Assembly: GCA_051294375.1 (NCBI GenBank)
Contig: CM119263.1
Span: 26,266,758-26,330,757 of the forward strand
From: Paraspadella gotoi
Taxonomy: Eukaryota; Animalia; Chaetognatha
Direction of reading: 5' to 3'
DNA: 64,000 bases
Shown: piece after piece, positions 3,099-52,460 of the stretch
Layout: each line of letters begins with the position of its first letter
How positions within the stretch are numbered: position 1 is the stretch's first letter
The notes under the pieces: model-generated
Seen by the model: the letters and a program-made list of their open reading frames with translations, nothing else
Databases searched by the model: none
Told to the model about the DNA's origin: nothing
Program-made: the position numbers and the translations under genes

Positions 3099-6000
3099 AT
3101 GGATAGCATCAAATTCGACATCCTTTTAGACGAGAAATTTTACTTCACCGGCGACTTGGTCAAAGCCAAAGTCTACATCACCACGAGCAAGAAGATTCGA
3201 TGCGATACAGTTGAAGTGAGAGCGGGAGGGCGGATTGTTATAAACTCGTATGTCTGAATTGGTTTATTTAATATTAATTCTATTTCTCGAAATTGCATTA
3301 TAGCTTTCTCCGTTCACTGATCTAGGTCAAACGTTTTATTTTGTCAGATGGCTTAAGAGTTGTTTAAGAATACATAGTTTATTATTCTATTAGTGCGCAT
3401 AATTGTATAAAATAACTAAATTTGGTTTAATTTCCACTTTGACAGGTGGTTTGCAAAGGCAAGACTCGCGTTGCCTGGAACACGAGAGATAGTTTCGACG
3501 TCAACGACGAAATCAGGGACGAGAAAATATTCTTGCTCAGACAGAAGGTTTTGTGGCAGACAAAGCAAGACCCAGCCTACTTCCCGAAGGGAACCTACGA
3601 GTACGATGCCAGGTAGAAGACTCGCTTCGAAAGCGGCGATATATTTCGATTTGGGCGCGTTTGCTTGCGCCGTCGTTTTGCAAGCGAGCGCGATGTGTTC
3701 GGGCGAGAGCGGAAATTTACGCGAGGGAAGTTAATCGTATTTCGTCGTCACCCTTGACCCCTTTAGATGCGGGGAGGAGGGGGTTGGGTAATGGGTACAA
3801 GGACCCGAGAGCACGTGAAGGTAAAAAGAAAAGGGGAAAGATTCGAATGCGTTTAGCGACCGGAAATTGGCGGTTTTGTTTTTATCGTTTAATCGAAGGT
3901 CGGACGTGTGTAAGGTTTTTCGATTCGGTTTTACGACCCGAAAACGGAAAATATTAGGGAAAACTTAGAAGTAGGATCTTGGAGGGAAAAGAAAAGTTGT
4001 TTCAATTCAGAAAATGTTTCTTGGGGGGGGGGGATTTCGAAAGATAAAAGAGAACGAAGGAAAAAATAGAAAATGTGAAAAGCAACCGAATAGATATTAA
4101 AATAAGTGAAAAGTATTATTCGTGCGGAAATCAGAATTGATGGAACATTTCTTGGGTTTCACGGTCAAGCGTCATGAAAGCGTGAAATGGAATTTATCGC
4201 ATAGCAAAATAGTTTATTTATTAAATGAATTGTATAATTTTTATATTGGTTGTACCAATTTCATACCTATGAAGATACTTCGGGCTTAATTTAGATTTAA
4301 ATTTTTAGTTTCAATCTCCCCGAGGAAGGGATTCCCTGCTCCTTCGAATCCCCAAGAGGATCTATTCGTTACTACATCAAAGTTACCCTCAAAACAAAAT
4401 TCTTCGCTACCCCTCAAGCTATCAAGCACTTCGCCGTGCTCGCCCCAAAAGTCTTTTGCAGCGATAATTGCTTCCACACGCCGATGGTGAGTGGCTTCGC
4501 TTTGTAATTTGTTTATATCAATTCCTTGGACTCGATTGCACTTTCATTCGATTGAAATTCGTACAACCAGCTTAAATATTACAATATTACCCACCACATG
4601 TCAATAAGTAATCTTTTCAGACTAGGTTTGTTCAAGTTCTTATCCCTCTTAGCTCTTACAACATAACTATGCAAACTTTTAATCTAGTCTCGCGTTTATA
4701 AATCCACTGGAGTATTTGGCTTCCTTTTCAAAATTGTTGAATGACTAAAAAATAGAGAATAGTTTCAGATTAGTCCCTTACTGGTTAAATTTCTAGGGTT
4801 ATATTGGCAATTTCAAAAAATTTTAATTTTTTAGAAACCAACGCGTTAACGAATGTAACAAAAATATATTAGATTGAGTTATAAAAATGATCTTTTGTAT
4901 TTCCTGGCGTGACTAAATTTTAACTTAACAGGTTATAGAGTCAGCCGAGAGACGCCGTTGGGCTTCATGCCTAAAAACAAAGAAGTTGACGTTGAAGACT
5001 CGCATGGATCGAGGCGCCTTCATCGGAGGCGAAAGGTTTCGCGTTTACATAACCGTCGACAACGACTCGCGCGAGGAAGTTTTCATCCAAATTGAGTAAG
5101 TAATATATAAATTATTAGTATGTCATTGAGAAAAAAAATTGTAAGGAGTTTTCAACAAGGCTAAATTTTTGCAACAATTTAAGTAGTAGGTTTTAGAATT
5201 TGTTCCTCTCCTATTAATCGATACTTTAAATAACCGAGACGAATTTGACAAATTATCTAAAAAATATCGGTCGATTTAAAAACCTTGTGAATGCAGTAGT
5301 TTGTGCTGTCAGCGTTTATTTATTTGTGCAAAACTTTGTCAGGTTGATGCAGTACACCGATTACTATATCGGTGAGGAGCCGACGTTACAAATGAAGCAG
5401 GTTAAATTGGCGCAGCAGAAGATGACCACTGCAAACATTTCGCCAAACGAAAAAGTCGATATGCGTCCGAGAATATTCGTGCCAATGTTGCCGCCAACTT
5501 TAACCGAAGTCTCCCCCGCCATCCAAACGTATTACTTCGTGGAGGTCAGTAGGACTCTAGTAATGATTGTGATCTACGGAATCGCAGGGAAGTTTTTTGT
5601 ATATATATATATATATCGATATATATATATATCGCAATTGTTCTCCGAATCTCTGTTTTAATTTTCTTAAGTTAACTTTTATAAAGTTCATGATTGTTAG
5701 TTAACTAAAAAATATTAAAAATTGAAAAAAAAAGTAATGGGCAAAAAACTTTTATCCTGGCTTTAGGTGACCGTCATGTCTTTCCCGCGACCCGGTGTCG
5801 AGCGTCTCAAAAACTCGCTTCCCATCACGATGGCTACTCTTCCTCATCGGAATGCCATCCCGACGGAACGTATAATTACTGAGGCCCGGTGCGACCCGAT
5901 AATTGCAAACGTTCCGATGCTGGAGCGGCCGCCGTGGAGGCCGCCGCAGCCACCGGTGTTCTTTTTACCGGGTGCCGATAGCGCCGAAGGGGCCAACTAT

Positions 6001-11550: not shown

Positions 11551-12366
11551 TTAGTCGGATCTGCTTTCAGCAGATCCCGACTCTATAATTCACTTTGTCG
11601 GTCCGTCGGTCCGCCCCTTCAATCTTGTCCGGCACTCACTTATATCATGTCAGAACATCGAATTATGATAAATTATGCAAAAATATGATGTCCGTCCATC
11701 CGTCTGTCCATCCGTCCGTCCGTCCGTCCATCCGTCCAACCTTAGCAAAAAACAAAAATTACTCGTGATTGGATGGATGGATTGGAATGAAATTTTGTGT
11801 GTGGGTAGGGAAGTGTGTGATTGAGCTAGATATGAAGTTTCGATGGAATCGTCCGAGTGGAAATGAGTTTAAATGGAAGAAACAAAAAAATATATTTCAC
11901 TATTTGAATACTAATGAGTGGATGGGGCGATTGACTTGAAATTTTGTATTTGGGTGGAATAGTGTGTGATTAAACTGGAAATCAAGTTTCGATGGAATCG
12001 TTTGAGTGGAAATGAGTTTAAATGGAAAAAACAAAGAACCTGTTTCACTAATTGATTATGCTTCTTTTTCTTTTTATTTTAAATGTAAATGCAAGATGTA
12101 TTAATTAATCAAGTAATTAATTAGTTAATTAATTAATTAGTTAATTAATTAATCNNNNNNNNNNTATATCATGTCAGAACATCGAATTATTATTACAAAC
12201 ATTTTGGATCAAATTAATTGCATAATTAATTACATAATTAACTTGAATAAATTAATTATTAATTAATTAAATAATTATTTATTAATAATTAATTAATTAA
12301 TTAATTAATTAATTAATTACCGATAATGATCGTGGGCAGATCCGACATTGTTTGCTCAAACTTGTT
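11551..12366 (+). mobile_element. Helentron-associated (HINE/DINE-1-like) element, family A
   Basis: 5' subTIR GTCGGATCTGC with adjacent inverted copy, (TCCG)n microsatellite, (TTAA)n tract, 3' subTIR GCAGATCCGAC then short hairpin and CTTGTT, T-rich flanks. Spans a 10-N gap. Confidence 0.7.
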
Positions 12367-12844: not shown

Positions 12845-15800
12845 CTATTTCCCGCTCGGATCTTCACAATCTTGGCATTTTTCCATCGCTGTGGAGTAAT
12901 CCTCAATCTGCACAGTGGTTTCGTATATTTTAAAATCTTCGTTGAGAATCCGCGTCACCTTTGATTTTCGTGTCAAAATAAATTTAAATAAAGTAAAAAA
13001 ATAAATAAATACTTAACTATTTTTGACTAGCAATTTATATTTTATTTACGTATTCCATTTAGTAAACTCACCGCTTGTAGGACATCGCGACAGTCGCTTG
13101 TTTTTTGACCAGCCTCGGTCTCAACCGCCAAATGTACCGACACTGCCGGAGTGTCGAGTGACAGGGACCAGATACGAAGATTATGTACCCTTTTGACACC
13201 TGGATTCAATAAAGCGGTTTAAATATTTCATTGTCGTTTCTTGTTCGACAAGATATAAATTTTCAGCAAAAAATATATATCATTGACATGTTGACACGTA
13301 AAATCCTTTCTTTTCGTTGTGTAATAGAATTAAGTTAAAAATAAGTTTGATTTTTCTTCAACAACGATGTTTTTTTTTTTTCAACAGAAAAACGTTTTCT
13401 GTGGAAAAAAAAATCAAACTTTTTTCACTTAAAAGTTAAAACAACATTTTACAAATAAACCTTTTGCTTTACCATTAACCGTGAGTAACGCCGCCTTTAC
13501 GAGTGAGTATTGAATGTGACGAGGTGCTCCTTCCATCAAGACGGATAACAAATCTACTGTTATTCTGAATGTAAAAATGAGGAAATAAAAGTATTTGACA
13601 CTTTTTTTAAGTACAAACTAGACTAAAAATAGCTCCTGTTTATACCCGACCACCAAAGAGATTAAAATACATTTTTACCGGTATGTCGTTATTAGGACAA
13701 TTATGCTGAATACGAAGGTGCATATTGGATCGGCGATGGAGTATTCAGGGTAGTAAAATATGATATAGGCTGGAAGAAGACAATTTTTACATACAATTAA
13801 TCAGACATTAAACTATTTTTCGAGCTTTTTAAAGTTAGCAACCTGCGATCAAAACTCCAAGACTTTGACAAAGATCACCGATGATGTGAATGAAAGCGGC
13901 CCGAACGTTGATATTTTGGTTTTTGGAATGTGAATGCGGCGAGTCGCTTCTGGAGCCGTTGGTTCCGTAATTTTTGTTTTCGCCCTCCTGAGGGTATTTA
14001 TAAATATAAGGAACACGGTTTGTAATTGAGCACGCTGGATAAAGTGTAATGGTGTCGGCATAGTGACATGGGAGGTCGCTGCAGGTCCAAAGCACTGAAA
14101 GCCAGCTGTCGGGAGAACCCCGGACATCAGACATATCTCCCTGCTGCCGTAAACCATCTTATAAGCTTCAGTTTAATTTTGATATATGTATAAAAAATAT
14201 TCCTTCATTTTATCACCAGTATGTTTCGTTCCTGATCAGACTGCCCTTCACTTCCACCGTGTGAATGAAGATGACCGATTTCAGATGCGCTCAGCACTAT
14301 TCCGATCACAAGGTTGAAGGCAACGCCGGCACCAGCTGGCAAATTTGCAAGATTGCAAGGATATTGATTTAAGGATAGTATTTTTTCCCAGATGAAGTGA
14401 TGTCGAGATTTGACTTTAACTAATGCATTTTCTTCATATTAATAAACTAAATGTTTTCGTACCAGTCAGGAGCATAATTTGACCATCCACATTGTAGTCG
14501 TGATTATAGATTCTAAGACCAGCTACATAGACTAAGATTCCTGTGATGAGCCAGATGAGGGCAATCGAAAGTAAAGAACCAAGAATTTCCGCTCGATACC
14601 TTTAGAGATTTAGTGTAAAAAATTGTAAAGCATTTCGTAGAATAAATATTTCATAGCTAACTACTAATGGTTTTAACGTGACAATTTTTGTTGAGTTTGC
14701 CATAATGCAGTAACTTGGTTAGGACTTAATGCTCCATTGCTCCATGGAAAAGTTTCACTAATTACATGAATACAAAATATATATTTTGATGCCGGGCGGA
14801 GTACAATACTGTAATCCCCGATCTTATACTTAAGGAAGTGGTCTCTTCATACAATTTAAACAATCTTTAAAACATTATACCCCTTCATTAAGGCGTAGTG
14901 AAAGTTGCAGATCAAAATTCGAATAGTTGATCATGAACAGTCTTGGACTAAAGAATATTGATATATAAAATTTTTTTTTAAAAATTCGCATACGCCCATA
15001 TTTATACATAGTACTCACAATAGAAAATGTCAAAATTTTAAAATAATTTATTCTTAGTTTTGAAAGCGGATTCAAATAAAAAGTTGATAAAAGAAAATAT
15101 AAGTCTTAATCAAAAATTATTTCATTAAGTTAGCCAAAATTTTAAAAAACTATATTTTTTATACTAAAATTTAATTATAGGTTAATTATAATAGTTTTTT
15201 TAGGATTTTGACCCACTTAATGAAACAATTTTCTAAAAAGAGTTATGTTTCCTATTATCAACTTTTTGTGAGGAATTCGAATCTGCTTTTAAAAATAAGA
15301 AAAAAACATTTCAAAATTGTGACATTTTCTATGGTGAGTACTAACTACTATGTATAAATATGGGCGTATGCGAAAATTGAAAAATAAAAATTAAATTGTT
15401 TTTATTTAAAAATGTTCACAGGTACAAGCCTGTTCGTGATCTACTATTTGAATTTTGATTCTACTTGATTTTAATATTTTTGCTACGCTTTACCCTTCAT
15501 TGATAGGGAAGCCAGAGAGAGTCTGTCACGAAAAGCCGATGTAAGAAATAATCTTAATTAAAATAATGGTTTTTTTTTCTGAAAAGAAATCATTGTTTTA
15601 CTATTACTTAAATACTGCATTATACTCTAATTAAGTTATAACTAATTAATAATATTAATAATATAATAATATAATTATAATCATTAGCGCTAACCATCCA
15701 AACGAGAACTTTTTTGATGCGGGTCTCGTTTTTAAATGAATTGATATCAATCCGATGACCAAAGCGATGAGGTCTGTAAAGAGATGCGCCGCGTCGGCCA

Positions 15801-19410: not shown

Positions 19411-22400
19411 ACGGAGATAAATTCCATTTTTCTCTAGTTTCAGCATTATTCCGAAAGTCTCGTGAATATTTTGAAATAACTCCACGTGATTAACAAGAGT
19501 TTTCGCAACGAAAAAAGAAAGAGAAAGTTTTCATAATTTTTTAATTATTTTCTTTTCTTTGTATCGTAGCAATACTTACATCTTCAGAGGCTCAGTCTCA
19601 GTAAATAACTAAATAAAGGAAACTACGTGGCTTAAAAGCGAAATCGGTCTCTGACTCGAGCACAGTAAATTTACCGCTCAATTTTCGGGCGTCTCGCCCA
19701 GAAACTGTTTAAAAGTGACGCCGTCGCCCGAACGATTTCCGGTTCTTTGGTTTTGCATAAAAAAAATGTGCTTAGAATTTTATTACCGTTTTAACCAATG
19801 AGCATACAGAACAGCTTACAGACCGAGTCAAGATAAAACAAGATAAAAGCTGATGGGCTATTGCTCCTTTGGCTCACAATATTAAGGTACGGCGCGAAAA
19901 CGAGTTGAGTTACATACTTTACTATCGCCAACAGAAAAAAAAAATTAAATTGAAAGTAGGAAAATTAATTAAGTGTTTAAAACATTGGAAAGGGAAAAAA
20001 TAAAACCGAAGAAAAGTGGAAATGTGTCGATCCTTAAAAAAAAAGACATGGAACCAAATAATATGCGTCTAAGTTACAATAAAACAATTTTTGATAACTC
20101 TTATAACCAACGATCAAAACAAAAGAGCAAACCTCCGACAGACCGTAACTAATCTACCGCTAGGAGTAATAAAGATAGGCTTCGCCGCAGCGAAAAAAAA
20201 GAACAGGCTATAAAACAAGTCAGTGGAGACAGAGGGTTAAACGATAAAAGCGGAGAAATGGATTCCGCGGAGACGAAAATGGATTCCGCGGGAAAAACAC
20301 GTTTATGTCTCAAGTCGCGGATTATTTTGAATTTTATGGAAATACTTTTATGCCCCTTTAAAATTCAAAATACTAGATAATAACTAAATTGTGAAATTTT
20401 AATTCATCTTGGTTAGAATATTTTATGAATTAATCTATTTTAAAAATATACGTAATAATAAAAAAAATTAAAATTAAAACATTATTTAAAACATAAGCGT
20501 TTCTTCAACGGAAATTGTTTACGAATAGCTGCAAACGTTTCTCATTTATCTCCGTCAGACCCGAGCTACGCCCTTCCGCTCTACGGACTCGTGTTCCCCT
20601 TTGTCGTCACCGTCACAGTTTTGGTCAACGCTGCCGTCTGTGTCGTTCTCCTCAAGGCGCCGCTCAGGTAGACTCTTTAAACTCTTTCCATATTTATGTA
20701 ATTTATGTATAAATTCGGTTGTGAACAATACAATACTATACAATAAATACAATAACAAAACTAATTATTTAATGATGTTGAATGATATTTAATGATACTC
20801 ATTGGAAATATGGAGACGCAACGAAATAGGAAATTGATTTATTCGCCTTCAATGTCTCTTTCGTAGCATTTTGTATTCATTATTCACAAATTATGGTAAT
20901 ACGGAAACAGATTTATCAGAAATGTGTTTTTTTAGGTTGTTTTGTTTTTAGTTGCGCCGCGAGTACTGGTGGACCAACTCAATAAGTCACTTTTTGGTCG
21001 GTATGTCGTTCGGTCGGTCCGTTGGTCGTTCGGTCCATTGTTATATCTGTCTGTCAGTCTGTCCCACTTACGTTAAAAATGCACATAATTTACCACTAGT
21101 TGGTTTCTCATTTGTTAAGACTGAAAACAACCTCAAATCTAAGGTACTGCTAGCGCCGCCTTCAGGAATTCCTAAAACTATTAAGGATTAAAAGACGAAA
21201 TCTTGTTGCAGTGCATGACATAAATACATGGGCAAAGAAAGTTTTTACTCATGTCATGTCATGACATGTCATATCATTTGATCAAAAGGAAATACACGTA
21301 AAAATAAAGTCACTGCGGCGCAACATATTGGAATTACCGTTCTTGTTTATCTTTTTTGGTTGAAGTCTTGAGAACGGGGATTTTCATCAATGATTTATGC
21401 TAGACTCGATGAGGCCCTCGACGAGGCTTTCGTCGTCCTTATGTCCATTTTCGGGGGTGTGTCTGCTCAATTGTCTGTTTAATTAAGTTTTAAACTCAAT
21501 TTTCAATTATTTTCAATGTTTTTATGTCGTTTTTATTAGTTAATTTAATAATAATTATTTAGTTCGATTTAGTAAGTACATTGTACATATTACGATGTTG
21601 AAATTTTTACTTCGCTTTGCAAGCACTTTTTGACGGCAGTATAATTTCAAGCATTAAAAATCGACTTCTGATAAAGTGAAAAAAAGAAATATTTTATGTT
21701 TCCAAAACGGCCATACATTGCGAAAATTTTGGGGGGGTTCAAAAAATGTGATAACAGAGCAAGATTTCGGTTAAAAATTGTTGCAGACGAAAAAAATGAT
21801 ATTATGGCAACAGCCGGGTTGCCTGTGATGCCCATTGGGATGGGGCATCTCACTGTTGGCTTTGGGGGCTTCCGACCCTCAGTGACGCCTCCAGTCACTG
21901 GCGCGGTTACCCTAGGACGGTCTCGCTTTGCCAACGCAGAGGGAAGTCATTAGGACTGTGGATGGAACACTACGCCTGGGATGGTGTGTTCCCCCTCTGA
22001 GCCAATGGATTTGGCTGACGGATGGTGGACGTGAGGCGGTTTGAATATACCGCCACAATATAAAATATAAACCCGTAATTTTTATATTAGTTCAGTTTAA
22101 AAGTCAATTATGTATTACATTCATACATATTTATGGCAACAGCCGGGCTGCCCGCGATGGCCGTTGGGATGGAACTTCTCATTGTTGGCTTTGGGGGTCT
22201 TCCGACCGTCAGTGACTCCTCCTGTCACTGGCGCGATTACCCGTGGACGGTCTCGCATTGCCAACGCCGAGGGAATTCAGGACTGAGCCAAAGGGATTGG
22301 CTGAACGATGATGGGTGTGAGGCGGTGTGAATATACAACCACAATGTATCTTTTTTTGATTGAATGAAAAGAAAAAGAAGAAACTTTTATAAAGAGAAAA

Positions 22401-23413
22401 AAGAAACTCGAAAAGGAAATGTGAAATCAAGCAATATTTATCGAAAATTGAAGCGGAGAAAATGTTAAAACCTTTTTACCATAAAAAAAATCTGAATTTA
22501 TAAAATGAAAATGCCGGTGGAAAAAAAAACTAGATTGACGCCCTGACGCAAAACCAACGCTTTGAAAAAAATTGTCACCATTTTTCTAAAATTTTATCGC
22601 AATTCGTGAAAAGAATGAACTCAGCGCTGAACCATGTATAGATAAGTCGGGCGTCTCAGCTTTGGCAATGCATAGGCTTTGCCTATGAGTATGAAGTTAA
22701 TGATTAGCTATTTGTTGTATGATTTCGTATTTTAACAAACAGGTACAGACACAGATGTGAAAAATATTCTAGACTTTTTGACCGATTTTCCGACCAACTG
22801 AAACATATTGAAACGCCGTCAAACGTCTACGCTTTAAATACTCTTCGAACTCATTCTCACCCTAATTCCCTCCGGTATATTGGCAGAAGCCCCACCAATG
22901 TGTTGCTGGCGGCAATCGCATTGGCCGACACTTTAACTGGCATCTTTCCTCTGCCGCTGATTGTTTACATCTTTACATTCGGAGGATATCACGATTGGGT
23001 ACCGCAAGAATTCTGTAACGCCTACATACTGACTTATCAAGGCAAGTGGAGTAGTTAAGTCTATCTCTTGGAAAATACTACAGAAAAATCGTAATTTATT
23101 ACAAGGCATATAAACGATTTTCAGCTAATGCTTAATGCTTATGGCTTCACAACTGAATTGAAAATAATCTACTTTCTATACTATATTAAAAACCAATTTA
23201 AAGATAATAACTCCGTAATCAAGAGAAAAATCTGAGAAATAAAAACCTATTTTTCTGTTTTAAAGAATAAAAAAATGGTAATTACGTATAACAACATTTC
23301 CTCCTATTTTCCTGGCAACTTTATTGTCGTTGTTGTCAATGTTGTTACTCACGTTGGGGGGAGGAAGTAGAAAGTTGGCAGCCGTCGCCTCAATCTGCGT
23401 CCGGCATCGATCT

Positions 23414-23476
<63 letters not shown>

Positions 23477-26400
23477 CTCTCTTTCCGTTTTTGTCTCATT
23501 TTCCTGCCGTCGCTTCCATATTTAAATCAGTAAACATTTTTTTTTAAATCATAAGCGTATAGTATAGTATAGTATAGTACATTACAGTAAAATTCCATTA
23601 GCAATATATAAACAATTTAGAGCAAACAATGCCGGATCGGCCCACGATATTGGCGAGATTTAGGATCGGCTCAGTTTCTTTGTGACGTCGTCATCGTCGT
23701 CACGCTTTTTATCGAGCCTACAAGCTTTTGGGTGGAACCGAAGGACCGACAAAGTGATTTTATTTGCGGGGTATCCAAAAAAGATTAAAATTCTGTAAAA
23801 TAATTGTTTTTAACGATTAATGACCTTTCCTTAATTCCCTTTTTGCAGAAAGGTGCGCGCTAACCGTTTGCCCTTTGTCCTTCCAACCAAAAACCGATCC
23901 GTAAAATGCATTTTTTTCCTTTTAAACGACAGTTCTACCGACTATTTTCCATTCTGTCTCTATCTGGTTGACGGTCGGCTTGGCGGTGCAGCGTTACATC
24001 TACATCTGTCACCCGATCAAAGCTCGAAGCATCTGCACGATTCCGAACGTCATTAAAGGTAAAAAAAATATCTATTATAAAATAAAAGACTCTTTTTAAC
24101 GTCTGGCAAGGATACAAATAAATTCTCGTTTTGTTCCTGTATTTTGATCAATATAATCAATATTAGCCTATTAGTGGCGCCGCGAGCACTTACGTTAAAA
24201 ATGCTCATAACTTGCATATTGCATATTGCATAATTGTATAATGCATAAAAATTGCATATAGTTGGTTGCTCATTTATTAAGACAGGAAAAAACCTAAAAT
24301 CTAAGAGACTGCTTGCGCCGCCATCAGGAAATCCTAAAACTATATAGAATAAAAGACAAAATTCTGATACAGTGCGTGTCATAAATACACCGGCTAAGAT
24401 AGTTATTGTACTAATGTAGTCATGTCATATCATGTTATTTCACGAGAAATACACATGATACAGCAGTCCCTGCGGCGCAACACATTTGAATTACAGTTCT
24501 TGTTTATTTCTTAAATTTTTATTATGGTTGTCCCAAATTATCGTGACGAATGTTTGGGAAAACATTGGGGAAAATTCTTCCGTCTTCACCTTTTACCCGC
24601 CGGATATTGCGCTTCCTGTCAACGCATCAGATAGAGAAAAGATTCAGAAAAGTTTCAAGATATATATTTCCGTTTATTTTTTGAATAAGAATATGATTTT
24701 TTTTATATAAAAATATAACATTTTCAATCACAATAAACAAAAAAAGACTTTGATCATCCAAAAATATCGATAAATTGACATTTTTCCTATATTCTAAAGA
24801 AAGTAAATCGATTCAAACAGAGAGTTCCTCAGATATTTCGTCAAATAGATAAACAACGATACGAATTTTTCTTTCTTTTCCCCCGGCGACCTCTTTCGTT
24901 CGCTAAGAAAGTAAAGAGAACCATATTGTCCTTTTTGTCTTTCGGTGGCGCTGCGAATTATGAGGCAGAAATTGAGAGCTGGAAACGAGAACTCCCATCT
25001 GGCGGTCTACGTCATCAAGCGAACTAACGAGGTATAAACAAAAGGCGTTCGGCTTCAACTGGGGGAGGCGAAGAACAAAAGACAAGAAATGCCCAAAAAT
25101 CGTCTCGTTGTCGCGGCCAACGGAAGATGGATTTAATACGTGATATGGTCTTAATTGATGGCCACGAAATAGCCAATAGCCAATAGTCAATTTTCCGCCA
25201 ATACAAACAATCATATAAACTACGCCACCGTGTTCTCAACTAAACAACATAGTCGAACCAACCTTTTCAATCTGACAATATTCATTTGACCAATGACCAT
25301 GTCCCTCCGACGATGTTTATTGTTTATCCGACATAGTCGTAGTCGCGACTGAAAAATAAGAAAATCGTTTGACTCGTTTCCATTTTCGACTCCAACGCAC
25401 ACGAGTCACTAACGACTTAACAACAATTTTTTGTTTTGGTGTCGCAATAAAAAGCAATCAGAGTAGTCGTAAACGAATGGTACAAATGGCACAAATGGTG
25501 TGAATGGTGAAAAACGATAATCAAATAAAAACTGAACTATTATATATTTTAATTTCATACACATTGAATTTGAATATCTGGGTTCTCATTGGTAATTAAT
25601 AACAAGTAGATGTTTTGATTTTATTCTTAAAATGTGAACTCTTCTACACTCTTCTACACTCTTCTATCCTTGTTTGTTATAATTTTGTTCTTATTGAGAA
25701 AGGTTTATTATTTTTGCCAATACAACGATTTTTATTATTATTATTAGGACATGTTTCGACTCTATTGGTTCGAGTTTTTGTTCTTGTATATAAAAGTAGA
25801 GTAAATTCTTAATTTTTGGGAGATTCCTCTGAGACCATCTGGTATTAAATTAAATTTGTGAATTTACCGGAATATGTTAATAAATTTAATTTTTTTATGT
25901 AGCTTTGAGCTGTTGCTCTTGTCTTTTCTGCTGTTGATCTTTTCTCTGCTGTAGTTGCTCTTCTCTCTTCTGCTGCTGGTCGTCTCTAATGACTGTTGAA
26001 TAATAAACACTTAATAAAGTTACTTATCTACTTTAAGCACTGTTCAAACAATGTTCTCATCTGAAGCTGAAATAAATCTCAAATGGTACGAATGTTACTG
26101 CTGGTAGTAATGGTATGAATGGTCTTAAATTTCAAAGCGGTGACACAGTTATATTATTATTTTATTTCGAGCTTTTCATTTCGTTGCGTTTGAAATTAGA
26201 ATATAAAGCGAAATTTTTATTTTGTTAAAAGACAAAGAGTTTGTTTTTATTTTCAAGAAAGAAAAATCGTTCATTTTCGGCTAATATGTTAGCCTTCACA
26301 GCGCAAATAATAATTTGTTATACAAAATAAAAAAATTTCTTAATTCTAATTATTATTGTATGAATTTGATTAATTATTATAAAGTTAATATACTACTACC

Positions 26401-29400: not shown

Positions 29401-32400
29401 CAGCCCATGTAATACGTATTTGTTGTTGTTGTTATTTTTTTACCTTTTTGATTTTTACTCTGTTTTTTCGTTAATATATGTTTTCTCTTCTCACAAAAAA
29501 CACGTCTCGAATTTTTCTCTTAATTCTTATTTTTGAGTCACCGCAATTGGTATTGCCCGACGCTTCTTCTAGACTTTTTTTATCCTTGTTAATGACAATT
29601 TTAGTTTTGTTTCGTTTTCGAACGTATAGTCAACTCAAACATGGAGTACGTCGGGCAATGAAAAATTTTTGTGGAAGGAAATTTAAAATAATATTAAAAC
29701 TAGAAAGCTGTGATGGAAACTAAAACAAATTTAGATACTTGATTAATTCAATACAAAAATTTAGTGTTTAGAATTGTCTTTTACTGTTTTTACTAAAAAA
29801 AATTGAGGAAACGATCTAAGAAAACCATGATAGAATTATTTTCTCTTTTACCAAATTTAAAAAATTATACAAACATATTTATCATTTTATAAAGGTAACG
29901 AATAAAGTTTTTTAAATATAACTACTTACAATATAACAACCTACCAAAAAACAACTAATTGCACTATAGGCATAGTTTTTCCGAGAAAAAACCTCATTTC
30001 GATCACTGTGCATCGGGTAGAAATCAAATAAAACAGAGAGAGAGAGAGAGTGAGAGAGAAAATTTAAGACCGAAACATGTCTGTGATTCAGATTCAGATT
30101 CCTCATTAAAATTTAGATCAAAAATATAAAACATGTGATCAAACATTCTCTTGTCTTCAGTGCCAAATTTTAAAATAAAGATTTAAATTCTCCAGGGTCT
30201 TGGAAGTCATAGGCTGTGTTAGCGTCGCTGGAGCAAGTCCCGTTTGAGGAAGCTTCCTGTGAGCTACAGTCAGCAGCAGTTCCGGATTCTAGAGAGCTGG
30301 AACCAATTTTATGAGTTTACAAGGATATTACTACAAAGAAAATACAATTTTCTCTACTGTTATGCTAAAAAAAATTTTGAAGCGGATATTCTTTTTTTAA
30401 TTATACATGTAGAGGCAACAAAAATATAGTTAACTTGCTTAATCATTTAATCACTTCCCCCTAATGAACAGCTACATATGTGCTCGTTCACCGTTCAATC
30501 CCCTCACGGTCACGCTGGTTTAGTGTGATGGTGTCGGCATAAATTCGCCAGTGACATGGGGTGGTTACTGCAGGTCCAAAGCCCTGAACGCCAGCTGCCA
30601 GGAGATGCCTCACACCCCGGGCATCACTCATGCCTCCCCGTTTCCATAAAATACAAATGGTCAGTTGCACAAAGCACAACAACATTTTATTGTCGTTCAT
30701 GTCCTTTTGGCATTTGTATTGAGTAGATACTTTCAGACTATTATCCATCTCGTTAAAGAGGCCGTCTCTTTCAGACTCAATACCATCTCTGTCAGACCCT
30801 TGTCAGTCTGTTGCAGTCTCATATCAGTCTCTTTTACATCTCTTCCCTTCTCTTTCAGATTATCCATCTAAGCAAAATCCAGCGGAAATGATCTCTACTT
30901 GCGTCTCTCTTCCCTCCAAATGGATCCACGGTTGGGTGCCAATCTACATGATCACCTACTTTTCCAGTGAGTAAGGACGACAAGTTCACAGATTTGTTTA
31001 TATTGATATTAGCATTCAAGAGCTATAGCTACCGAAAGACAAGTGGTAAAAAAAAATTCATCATTTGAGTCGCTTCAAAAACTATTTTTGAAGATCTGCC
31101 AAAAACCGAAGATACTTTTTGGCCTTAATTTATGGGCAATGGGCATTAAGGCGTAGTAAAATTTATAAATTTAACTTTAAATAAAATTCTAAAAGTGAGG
31201 AACGAACAACATTATATTAATGAACATTTAAGTAATGAAAAAATTTTTAATAAATTTTACAATTTATGCAGTAGGCCATATTTATACTAGTACTAAACCA
31301 ATAAATGTTAAAATTTCAAAACAGTTTTTTCTAAGATTTTTTTGCAGATTTGGATTCGTCATAAAAAGTTGGTAAAAAGAAATATAACTCCTTTTGAAAA
31401 ATTTATTCATTAAGTGGGTCAGAAATTAGAAAAAGCTATATTTTAAGCTAAAATTAACTTTTTAATATAGTTGTGGAGAGACTACGTTTGTTTTTTTTAA
31501 TTTTTAACCCCACTTATGAAATAATTTTAAAAATGATTTATATTTTCTTTTATCAACTTTTGACGAGGAATTCAAATCTGCAATCAAAAATTAAGAAAAG
31601 CTTATTTTAAAATTTTTCGATTTTATAAGGATAGTACTATATATAAATATAGCCTACTGCGAATTAAAAAAATAAAATTAATTTTTTTTACAAATTAATG
31701 TTCACTGATGGTATGTTGTTCATGAATTGATTTTTAGAATTTTCGTATGTAACTTTCACTACGCCTTAATGGGCATTCTATTTATGTTTTTTTAAAAAAA
31801 TTGTGAATAGAAAATAATAACTTTAAAAATAGGAAATCATATGTGTAACTTAAAATAATCGGTTTAGTCATTTCAGAGCTACAGTACTTTAAACACAAAA
31901 GGCTAAAAATAATTTAATTTCCTTTTGCTCTGACATTTTGTTTAAGAAAAAAGGGTCATTCAATTCAACTTCAAAATAGGCCAACAATGGAGTACAAATT
32001 CAGAAGGCTGAGCTCCTGCCGATTCCGAAATGTATTCACTTTAAACATTTGATGCATTCTACGCCATTTTATATCGGTTTTAAATTATAATATAAATAAA
32101 GAAACCTATCCTGAAGAGTTGCAGGTCAAACGAAAAAGCCACATCCATCTGATTATTTTTTATGAATATTTTTATTAGTGGATTCGAAAAATGTAATAGA
32201 GAGACATTTTTAAATTTCAATTTGTATCATTGAAAATGAAACATTTTTAAACTTGAACCCTGAATTCTTCATAACTGGAACGCGTTTATCAAAATGTCTC
32301 TCTATTACATTTTTACAAATGTTTTTAAGATTGCTAATCAAATTTTTAAATCAATATTTATTGCAGTCGTTTAGGCTGCAACTCTTGAAATTCAGTATAG

Positions 32401-33492: not shown

Positions 33493-36421
33493 AAAGAAAA
33501 AAAGAAAGAAAGAAAGGACCTATCTAATAACAAATCATGAATTCACCATCTCAGGCGTGCACCAACCCAAAAGTGAGTAGTAAATATTTAAAATGACCAA
33601 CCAATGAACATCTAACCATTTTTTGAAACAAGATTAAGTCCTTGCGTCAGCGACTCAGAAACTTTCTTCCCTCGTGCTGGACGCGATTCGCGATTCGTGA
33701 TGTGTAAATAATTAAATTTAGCATATAGTCTCTTCGGAGGCGTGGGTTCAAATCTCACCGCTGCGGCACTATTTTCTTAGAGCGCCCCGTTGATTTATCC
33801 CGGATTTTAATTTTAACCTTAAAAGTTAAATTTGTAACATAATCTCTAACCCTAATCCTAATCCTGAACCCTAAACTAAAACCTTAATCCCAAATTTAAA
33901 ATTCTAACCCCTGACTTTAATACCTAATCCTATTCCCTAACAATCACTAACCATATATACCTACTTAATTTTAACTTAAAAATCTAATTCCGAATTTAGG
34001 ACGAAATTGGTTCGTTCAACGAAGAAATGGCCGAAAGAAAGGCCGAAAAGAAAAGAAAAGAAAAAACAAGGGAAAAAAAAGAAAAAAGAAAAAACAAGAA
34101 AAGAAAAGAAAAAAGGAGAAAAGAAAAAAAAGGAAAAAAACGCGCAAACATTGACATTGTGAAATAAAAAAAAACTTTTAACAAAAAAAGGGAAACGTAG
34201 GGGTTTTTCGTATTTGTCACTTGACAAAATTTCATCGCGCAATTCGAACTTTGATACAAAAAAAGGGGAGGGGAGCTCGTAAATTCTTTGATTGAGTTGA
34301 CAGTTTTTAGTTGCGCCATCTATATAAGTCAGTTTTCGGTCTGTCGGTGGGTCTATTTGTTCGTCAATCTGTCTTGAACGCTCAAAACTCAAGTTAATAC
34401 TGCATTATATTGCAGTGATGAACTATAAGATTAAAAACAAGCAAATATTTTATACATGATACTGTCAAGATTCATACAATGTTTAGTCGTATGATCGTCT
34501 GGATATTCGTCCATTAAAGTAGCCGATGAAATTTTAATGCTAATGTATTCAGCGTTAAAATAATCTATCATAAGCAAATTAAGCATAGATTAATTAATTA
34601 ATTAGTTATCTAATCATCTGCTTACCGCTAATGATCGTGGGCGTTTATATTTACTGTGAAAAGAAAAAACATAAAAATATATTTATTACTTATTTAAATA
34701 TTAATTACTTATAAAGAGAAAAAAACTTGACAGCAACATTTTCTCCTCTTTCTCCCATTTTTAAATCGGCCTCTCTGACCCTAGAGTCTTCTTTCAGGTC
34801 TATCGAGGTCTTCTCTCTCTCGCTCTTCCTCGTCTCTAGAGAAATACAGGTCTTCCTTAACGAGGAGGTCACTCTTTCTTTTTTTTATTCCCAGTGGAAA
34901 AAAAAAGCTTTATTTTACTCTTCTCTCTAATGTGCAGATTTAAGGAAGCGCACAGGTGTCGAGTCGAAAAGCAATTATATGCCGGATTTTCTGCTCATCA
35001 GTGGAGATCCGCTTCTTGTAAATGCAATGTTTATGAAATCAGATATCGGGCATCAGATAAAAGTTAATGCCCTTGCGATTTTTATATATCTATAAGTTTC
35101 CGTTTTAAAAATGATTTAATTTCAAACGTAAATCCTATCTCTTTCCCTTCACGCTTTACCGCTTCAATTGCGAGCTTTCTCGACTTATATCGAGGAAAAC
35201 TTTGCCAACGGGCAAAGCTTTATGTACTGTATCGAGCTTTTTTTTTTTTAAATTCATCATCAGTTTCTACTCAATGAGAAAAACTAAATTGATCATTCCG
35301 ATGCTGATGCCTTCGTTGTCGTTTTTACTGAATAGAACGAGTGAATAATACTGAATATCTGTGATTTATGCTTTACTTTTGCATTAGGCGCAAATTAAAT
35401 CACTTGATATCGTTGCCGTACATAAGCTTGCAATGTCATTATCTTGTAAGAGTGATGGAGGCCTTAAACCGCCAAAGCCTGTCCAAAGTCAGGGGCAAGA
35501 TAGCTTATTTATTAAATGAATGGATAATTTTTATATTGGTTGTACCAATTTCATAAAAAAAGTTAAGACTTCACCTTCTCCTCTCCTCTCTCCACTCTCC
35601 CCCCGCAGCCCGCGTGGTGGTCGTGCACATCATCCCTTGCATTCTCCTCGTCGTCACCAACAGCCTTTTGGTCGACACCATGAGGGAGGCAAACGAGCGT
35701 CGCCTTCGCCTATTGCAATCCAACATCAAGCAGAAGCGGGACAACGCCCGACAGCGCCGCCTGGCCGACAAACTTCGGGCCGACGCGGAGAAGCAACAAC
35801 GGGAAAAGGAAAAGATGGAGGACATGGAGGACAAGGAAAACAAGGAGGACAAAAACGACAAAGAGGACAAAGACAGCAGGAGCGTTTCGGCCAAAAGCGT
35901 GTCAGGTTGTCCTACACCGGATATCGACCAAGGTGAGCGAGGGAAGGGACGATTGGGGAAAGGAAGGAAGGGTCTGGAAAAGAGGAAAGAGTCAATTGTC
36001 CTCAATGGGTCACTTGAAAAAAAAAAGAGGGAAAATTCTGGGGAAGGAAGAAATAAGCAATCATTATATGTGGGGGAATAATAGAGAAAAAAATGAAAAA
36101 GTATAAAACAGATTGGTAAGGACAATTTTGAGTGAGAAGGGAAGGTTGAAAAGAAATTGTTTTTTTGGAATATGGGAAGATAAAAAAAGTTTCTACCGAA
36201 GTTAGAATGAGAGGAAAAGTTTAGTAATTATGAGCGAGGTGGTAAAAGATGATACAAGAGAAAATAATAAGATTGGGGTGTACGTAGGAAGAACGAAAAT
36301 GAAAAAGAAAAAAAGGAAATAAAGAACCGGGATAAAGTCAGAGATGGAAAACGATTTTGTTTATCCCTTTTTATGGGAACTCGTTTCCTCCGGCTGCGAG
36401 AGAGAGAGAGAGAGAGGAGAA

Positions 36422-36516: not shown

Positions 36517-37583
36517 GTCACGTAAGGACGTCGATGATTGTTCGCGGCCCTCCTTCATCAAAAGCTTAAAATAACTTATTTTTTTAACACGAACATGTTG
36601 TATATTATTATTTATTTCCTTATGATATTTTTTTTCTTTCCGTTTCAAACTCAACTGGCTAAGAACTCCATTCATTTCTTCTTCTCGCTGCTTCATTTTT
36701 TTTCTTTTTCCTCTATAAGACCGACCAAGTGTTTATATTGACCTAAAAAAGATCGAGAAGTTTGTTATCAGATAGTTCTTCGTTTCGGTTACCTTAGAAG
36801 TTCTTTCGTATCACTCCTGTCTGAAGTCTATTCAAATATTTTATAAGCACAACCAAACCCTCTCTCATCAACACCCACTCCCCGTCAACTCCTTCCGTCC
36901 AATTCTCCCTTCAGACACTCCTTCGTCGAGACGCCCGTCCAATCTGGCGGCGTTGGAGCAGACGAAGAAGGAGCGGAAGAAGCGACGAGAGGCTCGATGC
37001 ACCACGTTGATGCTCGTCATCGTCGTCACAGTCTTTCTCGCTGTCGAGTTGCCGCTCACCTTCATCTTCATCGTCGAGGCGAGAGAGTTGGTGGGATATG
37101 ACTGTAAATATAATCGAGTACCTGAAGGAGATGTGGAACGGACGGTTTGTGGGGCTTTGGGTAAGAGAGGGGAAGGGTATTGCAAAATTGACTATAGATC
37201 GCAACTGGATTGTCAATAATCGCTTGAGTAAAAAGAGTGAAAGGTTGTGTTGTGAATTTTTTTTTCTAAGATAACAGAGTTTTACTATTTTTTGGGGGGG
37301 GAAATTTCAAATTTCTTTTAGGTATGTGTTATTTAGGTTTGTGTTATTTATTTGTTTTTAGGTTATTTTCTTTTAAATATAAATTTTTTTTTTTTAAGTG
37401 ACACCTTTTTGTATGTTCTTATTCCGACGATTTTCTGAGGGTTTATTTTATTTTTAGAGCAGAATGTGGGCGGGATTGAGATGAGACCAAATATAGATAT
37501 CCTTGATTTGTTGCAATAAGAGGAGGAGGAAGGTCGCCATGACGACAATGGGGGTCTTAAGTTTATCTTGATCGGATGGTAAT

Positions 37584-40066: not shown

Positions 40067-41351
40067 TCTCTGACTCGCAGAGGCTCCCAGAGGATTGTCT
40101 TCGGAAGTCAAAGTCTCGAAAAGTATCGCTTCAAAATTGAGGTAAATTTAGTGGAAAGTTTTCACTGAAATTGCGATTTTTAGGTTTTTTCCTTTTTATT
40201 TATTATGGTTTTTTTATGTCATAGAGAGGGCTCGATAAAAGATACTTATATATGTATATACTTATACTTTTTAATTATATAATTCTTACCATTAACATTA
40301 ACCATCTTGATGCTCTTTTATTTTTCCCCGTCAGCCTGAACATCGGTCGCGGAGCCAAACGCGATGAGGCCAAAGTCGCCATCTACGTAGCGTCACCTAC
40401 GAGCGACGTCGGCGCCGCCGCTCGAGACTACAGGCACCTGCAGCTCGACCTCAGCGGCGTCGAACCGAGTCGTGATTCCGTCTTTCCGACACAGGTGCAG
40501 GGGACGTCGTCCGAGTAATGTGTTACTCATTGACCGTATTTAAACTTTATAAAACTGTAGTTTTAATTAAACTATCTTAAAACTAAACAGTAACTTTTAA
40601 CAAGCTATAACTTTGTATTTTACTCAGGCCTACTACTACTGTCGAAAGTGTGAAAATGATAAAATTTTAAAAATTGAACACGAAAATAAAGAGCGATGAA
40701 AGTATTTTATTAAATTCATTTTTATATTGGATAAATTAAAATATATATAGTAGAAAAAAATATAAAAATACTAGGAATTTTTAAATTTAAAACCGGATTT
40801 TATTTCTTCCATTTTATTCTGCATACTGTCGTCAAACGTAATCAAGCTCCTGACCTTTGCTTATTATTATTCCATGGCAACAGCCGCTTTGCCTGTGATG
40901 CCCATGGGGATGGGGCATCTCACTGTTGGCTTTGGGGTCTTCCGACCCTCAGTTTCGCCTCCAGTCACTGGCGCGGTTACCCTAGGACGGTCTCGCTTTG
41001 CCAACGCTGAGGAAAGTCGTTAGGACTGTGGATGGAATAAAACGCCTGGGATGGTGTGTTCCCCCCTCTTAGCCAATGAGGACGTGAGGCGGAGTGAACA
41101 TACCGCCACAATTCATCTGATAACAGCATCCTCGCGCTCACCCATCTGTAAAATTCGTCTGTAAATCCTTCTCCCACCCTTTAATCCTACAGATGAGTAT
41201 GCTAAGCCCCTCGACGACGGAACGGCCTCACTCGCCGACTACCACATCCCGAGGAATTTCTTCACTACTCGCGCCCCAAAACGCAGAGAATCCCGGTGAG
41301 TGCCAAAACTGTAAGCAGTGGGAGGAGAAAAAAGATAATGGCCGATGTTTG

Positions 41352-43572: not shown

Positions 43573-43744
43573 TCTTTTTTTCTTGGTTTTTTATTTGCGT
43601 GTTTTGTTTGTTTTTTTTTTGTTTTTTTATGTAAATAAAGTGCTTTCTGTTTGAATAGTTATTCATGAGTAGGAGTTTCGTCAGGATTTGGCCAAAAAAC
43701 GGAAACATTGCATCAAATTATCCTCAAATCAATTACCATGAGGT

Positions 43745-43850
43745 ACCGGCGAAGCGCGCCAGTGGCAGGGGTCGCCACTAAGGGTCCAAAGCCACAATCG
43801 AGTGGTGCCCCACCGAACTGGTCGTCACAGACAACCCGGCTGTTGCTATA
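43745..43850 (+). mobile_element. Diverged 3' fragment of the twister-bearing repeat
   Basis: GC-CAGTGGC/GCCACTA-AGGG-TCCAAAGC and 3' end CAACCCGGCTGTTGCTAT; subfamily-2 L4 combined with a subfamily-1 tail. Confidence 0.65.
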
Positions 43851-45933
43851 AATCATTTTATGGGCCTGGAAGACACTTTAATTCCTTTACATCGGTGAAC
43901 TTTATTACTCAGAAAATAAGGATTTCAACAAAATCAGACGGAACAGGGAAGATTAGGGAGGCCATTGAGATCCGTGGGCCGAACACAGCCGCGGTTGAGT
44001 AAATCTTAAGCTTCCCCTCTCCTTTTTTTTTCGAGGACTCAAGACTGTTTCTCTCCCTGAGGCGTCCTTAAATCGTTCTCTTTTCTAAACGCCATCAATC
44101 TAATTTCAGATTGACACATTCTCGATATTCTTTTATAGGCCTTTTATAAAAAGTAGCAGTATATAAACTATATATATTTAGGGGCAAAGGAGAAGGAAAA
44201 TATGTAAGTAGATGAAAAACAAGCCATATTAATTTGTAATTAAATTCTTTCAAGAATCATTTCTCAAATGAAGTATATATATTATGTACTGTGTGTATAA
44301 AAAAAAACATCCACTTTTTCTTCGCATGNNNNNNNNNNNNNNNNNNNNNNNNNCCTCGTTTCGTTTCGTGGCTCTTTATTTTAATATGAAAACGCTATCA
44401 GTCTAACATAAATCTTTGAAAACCGCAATTTATTAATTCAAGATTTAACAAATGAGGGTGTTCTTTTTCTTCTATCTTCTTCTTATTCCCTTTTTCTTCT
44501 ATCCTTTTCTTTTTCTCTTTTTTACTCATTCTATCTTCTCTTCTTTCCTATTCTCTATTCTTTTCTTTTTTTTTCTTATTTTCCGCTGTATTTCTTTTTT
44601 TCCGTCGGCGGCGAAATCTAATTCCTCGACTCATCCGGCTGAGAGAAAGATATCTGGCGAAGAAATGGAGTGACAACCGGACCGAGGTAGAGGACAAAAA
44701 CCAATTACGACTGTTTGTCCTTGAAAGTTAATTAAGGCCAAATCTCGCTTCATATCGTGTTCCAGTAAGGTCTCTGGTGTTCTAAGCTCTTGATTCTGTG
44801 CTAGGTACTACTGTCGGTTTTTTTTAAGTTAGGAACCATTATTTTAAGAGGATTTTTTTTAACTGGTTCGAGTCGATAAAAAAAAAAAAACGGAAAAAAT
44901 AGAACATTGGGCTCGATGGAATGTGGTTAGCAAAGAGAGTAATAAGGTCGACAAAAAAAAAGGGGTAAAAGAGCGGAGGGTCGACAATGGCGAAATAAGG
45001 ATGGAGAATAAAAAAGATGTACCAAGAAAATAGGAAATATTTGCCAAAATTCCAGGAAAAATGTGCTACAAGTGCCAAGGGTTAGTCTCGCTGCCTCAAA
45101 TAAGATATTTATTTATTAATATGATATAGGTAGTTTAATATAGGTTTGACCAATTTCATAACCTCCTCTGTCTCATATATCACTTCTTTAATCTTCATTT
45201 TATCTCAGTGCATCAGATTTCTAGATCTAATTTATTAAGTCGCGTTGTCTTTACAGGCTTCACTATAAATCGCGGCGTCACTCACTAGGTAAAATTTAAT
45301 TATATGAAAAATTTTTTGTTTTATTTTATCAAGTCAACGAACAGAAGAATGAAATTGAAGAAAGATCGCTGTGCATCTCAGAAAACAAATCTTTGATCAG
45401 GGGTGAAAAAATAGCCTGATATTTTTTGGACGTCTTAAATAAGGCTGTAGTAAAATTCTAATTTAACTTTATTTAAAATTCTAAAATTGAGGAACGAAAA
45501 ACATTATTATTTAATGATCATTTATGTAATAAAGAAAATTTATATAAAATTTTACAAATTTACGCAGTAGGCCATATTTTAATACTAGTACTATAATTCA
45601 ATAATGTTTAAAATATTCTAAACAGTTTTATAAAAGATTTTTTTTTGCAGATTTTGTGATTCGTTATTAAAAAGTTGATAAAAAGAAATATAACTCTTTT
45701 TGAATAAATTCCTTCATTAAGTGGCCAAATAGAAAAAAGACTATATTTAAGTGAAAATAAACTTTTTTTATATATTAAATATAGTTTTTTTATTTTTAAC
45801 TCAGCATTAATGAAAGAACTTTTTAAAAATGATTTATAATTTCCTTTTATCAACTTTTGAACGAGGAATTTCAAATCTGCAATCAAAAATAAAGAAAAAA
45901 GCTTATTTTGAAATTTTTCGATTTTATAAGGAT

Positions 45934-49767: not shown

Positions 49768-49849
49768 CAGAAACGGACATGTTCAAATTTTTTTTTACAG
49801 GAATAATTTGATTTGTTTGTGACAACGATTTGTTTTATTTCAGTTTAGA

Positions 49850-49892
49850 AACGGACATGTTTCGGCTTTGATTACAAGCCTTCATCAGCGTT
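49850..49892 (-). ncRNA. Minimal type I hammerhead ribozyme (Penelope-like element type)
   Basis: Exact reverse complement of 49916-49958. Confidence 0.85.
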
Positions 49893-49915
49893 GAAATATA
49901 ATTCACAAATCTGTC

Positions 49916-49958
49916 AACGCTGATGAAGGCTTGTAATCAAAGCCGAAACATGTCCGTT
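49916..49958 (+). ncRNA. Minimal type I hammerhead ribozyme (Penelope-like element type)
   Basis: Stem I AACG/CGTT, CTGATGA-A, stem II GGCTT/AAGCC, GAAA, palindromic ACATGT stem III, GTC cleavage triplet ending at 49954. Confidence 0.85.

Positions 49959-52427: not shown

Positions 52428-52460
<33 letters not shown>

Follow-up and report, generated by a model that had tools for sequence, protein, structure and literature searches.

The DNA analysed here is a 64,000-nt stretch from the chaetognath Paraspadella gotoi (assembly GCA_051294375.1, contig CM119263.1, positions 26,266,758 to 26,330,757; hereafter the window, in whose own numbering positions are given). It is AT-rich and microsatellite-rich and contains a set of short interspersed repeats, none with an open reading frame (ORF) of its own, that carry the predicted core of a twister ribozyme in the type-P5 permutation. 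The six copies listed in an initial annotation of this DNA (14034, 21804, 22133, 30514, 40874 and 43745) are all present and mutually related by blastn and nhmmer; against the 21804 copy the nhmmer E values ranged from 7e-78 to 0.077, and 14034 joined through 30514 (E of 8e-16). They divide into subfamily A (21804, 40874 and 22133, with pairwise identities of 81 to 92%), subfamily B (30514 and 14034) and subfamily C (43745, which has a B-type core and an A-type 3' end), to which we add family D, absent from the first list (Table 1). We are highly confident that the family is real and present in high copy number and that its P5 twister fold is of a non-canonical kind.

A CATA-like 3' end is kept in all nine copies and fragments in which it could be assessed, lying 90 to 108 nt past the predicted cut where this could be measured. 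Clear 5' truncation is seen in four (14034 of subfamily B, 43745 of subfamily C and the two D fragments); the extent of truncation is variable outside subfamily A, and the 5' end is sharp within it, both in its three copies and in the contigs described below. Direct repeats of 4 to 6 nt, differing in form, flank each of the three subfamily A copies. The AAT tail that had been ascribed to the family is confined to one of the six copies (40874) and is absent from the flank in run X2 (see below). Three degenerate, inverted D-like copies at 52 to 55 kb, which lack the CATA end and are likely an assembly artefact, were left out.

Table 1. Positions of the twister-bearing repeats and of their predicted parts in the window
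Feature	Positions	Strand	Description
Subfamily A, full-length copy (255 nt)	21803..22057	-	Best preserved; near the X1 majority sequence; fold z of -3.7
Subfamily A, 3' region	21803..21854	-	Two hairpins; fixed 3' end CCATA; end 106 nt past predicted cut
P5-permuted twister core, copy 21804 (predicted)	21855..21935	-	P5, P2', GA, T1' CCG, P1, UAA, P2, GC, P3, P4, L4 UCGGAAGC, P5'; predicted cut between 21909 and 21908; one C.A pair in P2
P1 segment (8 nt)	21910..21917	-	Self-complementary around the CCTAGG core; pairing of two copies predicted here
Subfamily A, 5' region	21936..22057	-	Terminal hairpin and more hairpins; length differs among copies; motifs resembling an A box (+54) and a B box (+90), both weak and internal
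Subfamily A, older copy (86% to 21804)	22132..22343	-	Internal deletion in the 5' part; additional A in L4; centre of the P1 palindrome disrupted; 16-nt tail with a possible 6-nt target site duplication on either side
Subfamily A, copy (92% to 21804)	40873..41110	-	AAGA in L4 breaks T2; P3 damaged; short 3' AAT run
Subfamily B, copy	30465..30648	+	Remnant tRNA-like head, B box at 30493-30501; 5' limit approximate
Subfamily B, twister core (predicted)	30514-30595	+	T1 TGG:CCA; P1 at 30532-30539 self-complementary; predicted cut 30540/30541
Subfamily B, copy	14030..14151	+	Truncated on the 5' side as far as the foot of P5; AA-P2-GC deleted (9 nt)
Subfamily C, copy	43739..43850	+	L4 of B type, 3' end of A type; 5' truncation leaves about 12 nt before the predicted cut, starting at about the L1 GA; no P2' or P5
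Family D, copy	35441..35555	+	P5 twister without P3; ends at CATA; P5 ATCTTG/CAAGAT, P4 CCTG/CAGG, T1 TGG:CCA; 1-nt loss in P2; P1 a 6-nt palindrome at 35459-35464
Family D, 3' fragment	4204..4265	+	Same CATA end; begins near P5'
Family D, 3' fragment	45102..45160	+	Same CATA end; begins near P5'

The abundance of the repeats was judged from the contigs of two runs, X1 and X2, neither of which is on record as RNA; their depth is not evidence of expression, and contigs cannot reveal cut ends. On 21700-22450, 504 of the 448,509 X1 contigs were placed, and a single contig of X2 (share 0.19). The summed X1 depth was 21,000 to 112,000 in the ten bins covering 21804-22063 and 0 in 21700-21777 and 22090-22193, and contigs depart in groups of 10 to 12 into differing flanks at 21801, 21803 and 22057. 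Since the depth is confined and the flanks are diverse, subfamily A is an interspersed unit, 255 nt long and sharply bounded at both ends, that is present in high copy number. Four positions of its full-length copy vary in X1 at 10% or more, leaving the core untouched. In one X1 contig, 1823 nt long and with a depth of 339, a tRNA-like stretch is followed by a B-like twister at 247-356. The sequence diverges in both directions, the divergence on one side starting after P5', and the contig is a candidate for a longer or autonomous relative.

The fold was evaluated with a strict descriptor that comprises GA, T1, AA, P2, GC, P4, L4 and a 6-bp P5, the helix layout having been taken from Table 1 of PMC8501958 (for this and all other papers cited by accession or DOI, our statements refer to the accessible part of the source). 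It passes two of the six copies, 21804 and 30514, placing the base before the predicted cut at 21909 and 30540, and the first of these agrees with the minus-strand core (21935-21855) and cut previously annotated. With two matches in the window against none in 5000 shuffles of each element and none in 20 whole-window shuffles, chance can be excluded for the twister core. A looser first descriptor, which also matched two AT-rich sites (47506 and 48086), had been replaced by the strict version. In a pair test on five aligned copies, 91% of 133 cells were paired, compared with 22 to 41% in slid controls, and double-sided changes were found in 6 of 28 pairs, two of them in T1. The T1, P5 and P4 swaps are as first reported and P1 likewise covaries among subfamilies, yet the support comes from two or three subfamilies rather than from six independent sequences, and the five-copy covariation is in effect a single comparison of A with B. 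Family D independently swaps P5, reverses P4 and has no P3, with the order of elements unchanged.

The individual elements of the fold are preserved to different degrees. The L1 GA lies opposite the predicted cut site, between N and AA, and is stacked on a 4-bp P2, in which three pairs plus the C.A pair are formed in 21804 and four of four in both 22133 and the subfamily B majority of X1. Pseudoknot T1 has three of three pairs in all five aligned copies and is present in family D too; pseudoknot T2 (GC with the GC of AAGC) is intact in 21804, 30514, 43745 and the subfamily A majority, broken in 40874, shifted in 22133 and deleted in 14034. The strand order is open at P5, a helix of 6 bp that closes the core in A, B and D. 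Relative to the X1 majority, 30514 has two changes in P2, and the majority letters at 30544, 30545 and 30566 (97 to 99% of depth each) restore perfect P2 and P3 helices; in GA-TGG, TAA and L4, subfamily B shows no variant at 3% or more. The L1 G and the A after the cut have catalytic roles in twisters. X1 depth and majority letters, descriptor, pair test and frame scan support the annotated P5-permuted twister in a short, ORF-less interspersed retro-element, and selection on the twister fold appears to us very likely.

Type-P5 twisters are reportedly covered by Roth and colleagues in work of 2014. With this class (Rfam RF02684, clan CL00120; permutations in PMC10085705) the repeats share the order P2'-GA-T1'-P1-UAA-P2-GC-(P3)-P4-L4(U-NNN-AAGC) and both pseudoknots, and a P3 insert occurs likewise in the phage loci L002 and L003; they differ in T1, which is GGG:CCC in the known class and CCG:CGG or TGG:CCA here, in the 6-bp P5 that closes the core, in P1 and in a score below gathering. 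Family D reaches 26.4 bits with the Rfam Twister-P5 model at 35441-35501 (gathering, 37.6 bits), and 21903-21860 gives a partial match to the twister-P1 model in the correct register (15.2 bits, E of 3.4). Our covariance model R1, whose five top matches are its own training set, recovers 43745 (22 bits) and family D (11 bits, E of 0.53) and no further copy in the window. As controls, phage and prokaryotic contigs were searched for twisters in P5 order, using a pattern that permits a P1 of 5 to 30 nt. From 100 parsed loci, 57 were dropped for having fewer than four P2 pairs (at least L010, L034 and L042 among these are real by Rfam) and 11 as duplicates, leaving 32 distinct loci, many of them from related phages. 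The Rfam Twister-P5 threshold was passed by 13 of the 20 control loci tested. A P3-like hairpin is seen in the phage P5-order twisters L002-L005, L017, L020, L027, L029, L030, L035, L039 and L049, of which L002 and L003 pass Rfam Twister-P5.

Scans of viral, metagenome and prokaryotic genome contigs with the family-core pattern gave no match. A looser pattern, likewise unmatched in metagenomes, picked out a phage type-P1 twister candidate (L001, 2997-3060) with T1 CAC:GTG and a similar P3, below the Rfam twister gathering score; the 12 viral loci found with a TGG:CCA pattern never had more than two of four P2 pairs and were regarded as chance. Three other assignments were dismissed by eye: an HDV-like ribozyme at the 5' end of subfamily A (helix spacing too short), a hammerhead at about 21938-22000, where there is a three-way junction (core absent), and a Helentron-type element (no sub-terminal inverted repeat that matches). 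Rfam scans found no hammerhead in the window.

The P1 segment, the stretch from T1' to the predicted cut, is 8 nt long in A and B and 6 nt in D, is self-complementary with another sequence in each of the three, and is matched by none of the 32 controls, where P1 is 15 to 28 nt long and folds alone (0 of 32 at 8 nt or less). Its self-duplex has a calculated energy of -11.0, -9.5 and -9.1 kcal/mol for A, B and D, and the intramolecular P1 hairpin of a twister was not found: A and B form at most 2 bp at +2.7 to +3.6 kcal/mol (A, +3.6), and D is too short. Among 8-mers with two outer pairs, fractions of 0.025 (A) and 0.052 (B) do as well. In the 21804 monomer the 3' arm of P1 is predicted to mispair with P4' in a fold about 9 to 11 kcal/mol below the nested twister skeleton, pseudoknots uncounted, and a P1 duplex with a second copy would withdraw this arm. 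Metazoan type I hammerheads have a helix III of 1 to 2 bp with a palindromic loop and act as dimers, the short helix preventing cleavage of monomers and permitting it in tandems (PMC4209133), and the palindromic mini-helix at the cut site is an analogous feature in A, B and D. The self-complementary P1, which the initial annotation does not mention, suggests cleavage that depends on a dimer and a biology of the Penelope type, not of the RTE type; we consider dimer-favoured cleavage by the predicted ribozyme somewhat more probable than not. In subfamily A the cut would be internal, keeping 145 nt upstream and 106 nt downstream, and dimer gating would explain the survival of an internal ribozyme in single copies.

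These features can be combined into a life cycle in which short non-coding P5-twister repeats are copied by a Penelope-like helper of the pseudo-LTR type (LTR, long terminal repeat) and are cut efficiently only when copies pair, a scheme to which we give even weight for and against. The steps would be as follows: (i) a source locus with two tandem units would be transcribed from tRNA-like RNA polymerase III (Pol III) boxes, as in subfamily B, or by read-through; (ii) the two P1 palindromes would pair as a duplex of 6 to 8 bp, and both twisters would fold and cut between N and AA; (iii) cutting would release unit-length RNA with a 5'-OH and a 2',3'-cyclic phosphate; (iv) its ends would be joined by RtcB or by a template jump; and (v) the reverse transcriptase (RT) of the helper would begin at the fixed CATA end and copy through the old cut site, so that insertions would retain both sides of it, stopping variably or after one unit. 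Single insertions would cut slowly, because they have no partner. Of these parts we infer the helper, the source locus with its tandem units and the RNA with joined ends. A 3'-anchored copying route fits the ends of the copies, with their fixed CATA-like end and variable 5' truncation, and the sharp 5' end of subfamily A would fit a unit-length template. A helper of the Penelope type is, taken by itself, an evenly balanced proposition, and the same holds for the reading that we favour, in which the family works like a Penelope-dependent retrozyme with dimer-gated cleavage. We put forward more tentatively, and with more doubt than belief, that the repeats are animal "twister retrozymes", small Penelope parasites without coding capacity. 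In several lineages, with differing palindromes, their P5 twister would have been remodelled into a ribozyme that is an obligate dimer and cleaves nothing but tandem precursors.

A number of observations speak against this proposal or against parts of it. With regard to the fold, the core that was said to be common to all six copies is complete in 21804 and 30514 only and incomplete in 22133, 40874, 14034 and 43745; none of the six matches Rfam Twister-P5 at an E of 1 or less, let alone its gathering score; a C.A pair persists in P2 of the subfamily A majority; and T2 is broken by 30548 C>A (17%) in one deep subfamily B contig from X1. The AAGA in L4 of two of the three subfamily A copies in the window (40874 and 22133) favours a plain GGGTC-GGAA-GACCC hairpin, but that letter accounts for less than 10% of X1 depth, and a consensus in favour of the plain hairpin, named beforehand as a finding that would count against a twister, was not obtained. 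With regard to P1, 22133 has a disrupted palindrome and 43745 has part of one; in subfamily B the palindrome carries unlinked variants at 3 to 20% of X1 depth, among them 30532 T>C (20%, two contigs), for which no compensating change is listed; and since inefficient, slow cleavage without P1 has been reported (PMC8501958), a partner may not be needed. With regard to the life cycle, neither RT nor GIY-YIG was found in the 158 frames scanned of the 505 window frames of at least 48 aa, low-complexity frames being mostly excluded. The window holds no tandem, partial-tandem or inverted pair; 22133 and 21804 are 86% alike across a spacer of about 75 nt that is nearly without X1 depth, and we rejected them as a functional tandem or LTR pair on account of that identity and the unique spacer. 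The 15 listed of 19 X1 joints are all skips, none running from a 3' end to a 5' end. The sharp 5' end of subfamily A differs from the ragged tails of Penelope-like elements (PLEs), and the copies lie in AT-rich DNA and not in the (TA)n targets typical of Naiad elements (PMC8557442).

The main rival is that the repeats are a tRNA-derived short interspersed element (SINE) moved by an ordinary long interspersed element, as in Schistosoma SM-alpha, with a twister replacing the hammerhead; the RNA would be a Pol III product, the weak P1 would leave most monomers uncut, and the ribozyme would process multimers only. It owes this standing to subfamily B, in which, contrary to the earlier claim that a tRNA-like head is lacking, a B box is present at 30493-30501 and 15 X1 contigs extend upstream of 30493 through shared sequence (agreement 0.71) that is tRNA-like by eye, one of them holding an A-box-like TAGCTAAGT motif. 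SM-alpha is the name used for the SINE-like hammerhead elements of Schistosoma. The fixed 3' end with 5' truncation, the possible 6-nt target site duplication (TSD) around 22133, the absence of a T4 run from 21804, 22133 and 30514, and the existence of SINE-like Pol III elements with an internal hammerhead (PMC6765202) are in line with such an origin. Subfamily A agrees with it poorly: its boxes are internal (+54 and +90), have one to three mismatches and are not above chance on window data, and transcripts that Pol III begins at about +40 of a single copy cannot include its first 40 nt. Moreover, the similarity of the A and B heads is no better than that of shuffles on window data (87 to 136 of 500), ARAGORN finds no tRNA, and a common poly(A) or simple-repeat tail is absent, so that we regard a SINE of this kind as unlikely, if the most serious competitor. 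A tRNA-like promoter and a Penelope helper are not mutually exclusive. The copies could instead be truncated tails, or pseudo-LTR scraps, of autonomous Naiad or other Penelope-like elements and not separate non-autonomous families, as might be expected from the 3'-anchored 14034, 43745 and both D fragments, from the diverging 1823-nt contig and from the report of Naiads that lack canonical hammerheads and are heavily 5'-truncated (PMC8557442). That the 5' end of subfamily A is sharp, with unrelated flanks beyond it and no ORF upstream, and that the twister of the 1823-nt contig lies near one end, behind the tRNA-like stretch, make this explanation rather improbable.

Two further explanations have a much smaller claim. 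Solo LTRs of an LTR retrozyme or of a terminal-repeat retrotransposon in miniature, i.e., an animal counterpart of plant retrozymes with a twister, would account for the TG with which subfamily A begins, the TA or TG with which it ends, a 6-nt imperfect inverted repeat and the 4-nt direct repeats flanking 21804 (ATAT) and 40874 (GAAT), and plant retrozymes do carry LTR ribozymes and 4-bp TSDs (10.64898/2026.07.22.740005). The element has no CA end, however, the third subfamily A copy has no 4-nt repeat, the boundaries of the repeats were picked after looking, and the X1 flanks show similar letters past the 3' end that are perhaps part of the element; with no paired LTRs, primer binding site (PBS) or polypurine tract (PPT) seen in the window and a one-sided 5' truncation that is untypical of solo LTRs, we consider this very improbable. 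The fold could also have been inherited as a relic, or be a passenger, and have ceased to cut, so that the family would spread without its ribozyme: the core is broken in four of the six listed copies, scores stay below the Rfam thresholds, the 21804 monomer has a predicted competing fold, and X1 depth has no step at the predicted cut site of subfamily A. Against this, in A as well as in B the majority letters of X1 leave the core intact or mend it, and four families preserve the fold with different pairs; of all the explanations considered, we give a relic the least credence.

The Penelope-dependent reading finds its closest parallel in the hammerheads of PLEs and retrozymes. PLE hammerhead motifs are mostly dispersed singles (PMC4209133), the RNAs of animal retrozymes arise by cleavage of tandems and can be ligated in vitro by RtcB (PMC7229834), and non-LTR retrozymes, which include dispersed monomers, derive from the pseudo-LTRs of PLEs (10.64898/2026.07.22.740005). 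Shared with these systems are short non-coding units of about 170 to 400 nt, an internal (here predicted) self-cleaving motif, a tiny palindromic helix beside the cut, dispersed monomers and 3'-anchored truncation; the ribozyme is a type I hammerhead there and a twister here, where no tandem array was seen in the window. Having no hammerhead and no visible tandem, the repeats are not members of the retrozyme family as it is defined. The SINE-like hammerhead elements of Schistosoma (PMC6765202) share a Pol III-type promoter followed by an internal ribozyme, which is predicted here in subfamily B; they have a hammerhead and a tandem organisation, whereas the present repeats have a twister, no tandem seen and, in A, a weak internal promoter. 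Plant LTR retrozymes (10.64898/2026.07.22.740005) share a ribozyme in a terminal unit and the 4-nt repeats found here in two of three subfamily A copies; they have a type III hammerhead and paired LTRs, in contrast to a twister without PBS, PPT or CA end. As for the analogy with Schistosoma RTE elements drawn in the initial annotation, the presence of a twister in a retro-element stands, and the T-variant twisters of S. mansoni Perere-3 (RTE clade) share the class and a similar P3 and L4 (PMC8501958). The remainder of the analogy is weak, because those twisters, of type P1, are located at the 5' terminus of an autonomous element whose TSD abuts the cut (PMC8501958), while the repeats described here have an internal predicted cut with 145 nt kept upstream, the P5 permutation and no ORF. 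In the literature, twisters are associated with the 5' ends of RTE elements, and hammerheads with PLEs, retrozymes and SINE-like repeats (PMC7761336, PMC13725137 and PMC10085705); in searches of the main text of freely available papers, we found no twister in a SINE, retrozyme or PLE and no dimeric twister.

Among the genes of the window, a sex-peptide-receptor-like G-protein-coupled receptor (GPCR) has plus-strand exons at 22876-23049, 23926-24096, 35557-35750 and 36776-37120. The ten top phmmer matches of a GPCR exon were looked up, and the three clusters with an informative name are molluscan (44 to 57% identity); a word-based protein search with the exon gave no match. In relation to the span of this gene, the sense twisters 30514 and 35451 both have a damaged P2 and the sole intact copy, 21804, is antisense, the numbers being very small. 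Exon-sized matches to Arrestin_N (4301-4504, plus strand) and to a zinc-transporter dimerisation domain (13045-13218, minus strand) were also seen, and GC-rich frames at 5767-7640 consist of 30-nt tandem units encoding Ser/Ala/Glu-rich repeats without a Pfam match. At 11680-12340 and 42850-43450 lies a separate repeat family, which has runs of (TCCG)n and (TAAT)n and contains a duplicated stretch of about 150 nt; Helentron-associated elements are a candidate for its identity. Near-perfect long hairpins at 49833-49975 and 51250-51529 (arms of 67 and 134 nt) are either artefactual or akin to miniature inverted-repeat transposable elements, and several inverted duplications at 51800-56100, which are 92 to 98% alike, differ mainly by homopolymer indels and are accompanied by N gaps, are probably an assembly artefact from fold-back reads.

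To our knowledge, most eukaryotic twisters have no assigned role, the one described being at the 5' end of RTE elements, and this role does not fit the internal P5 form. The repeats of P. gotoi indicate that Rfam overlooks high-copy animal twisters with a non-standard T1 and a short P1. If "twister retrozymes" exist, they would correspond among twisters to the double hammerhead, and the twister would be the signal in RNA that serves the elements where hammerheads are lacking. If the palindromic P1 does gate cleavage, (i) two unrelated ribozyme classes would have converged on a switch that cuts only in tandem, (ii) the finding would bear on why Penelope-type elements carry ribozymes, and (iii) it would offer a natural ribozyme that senses concentration or copy number.

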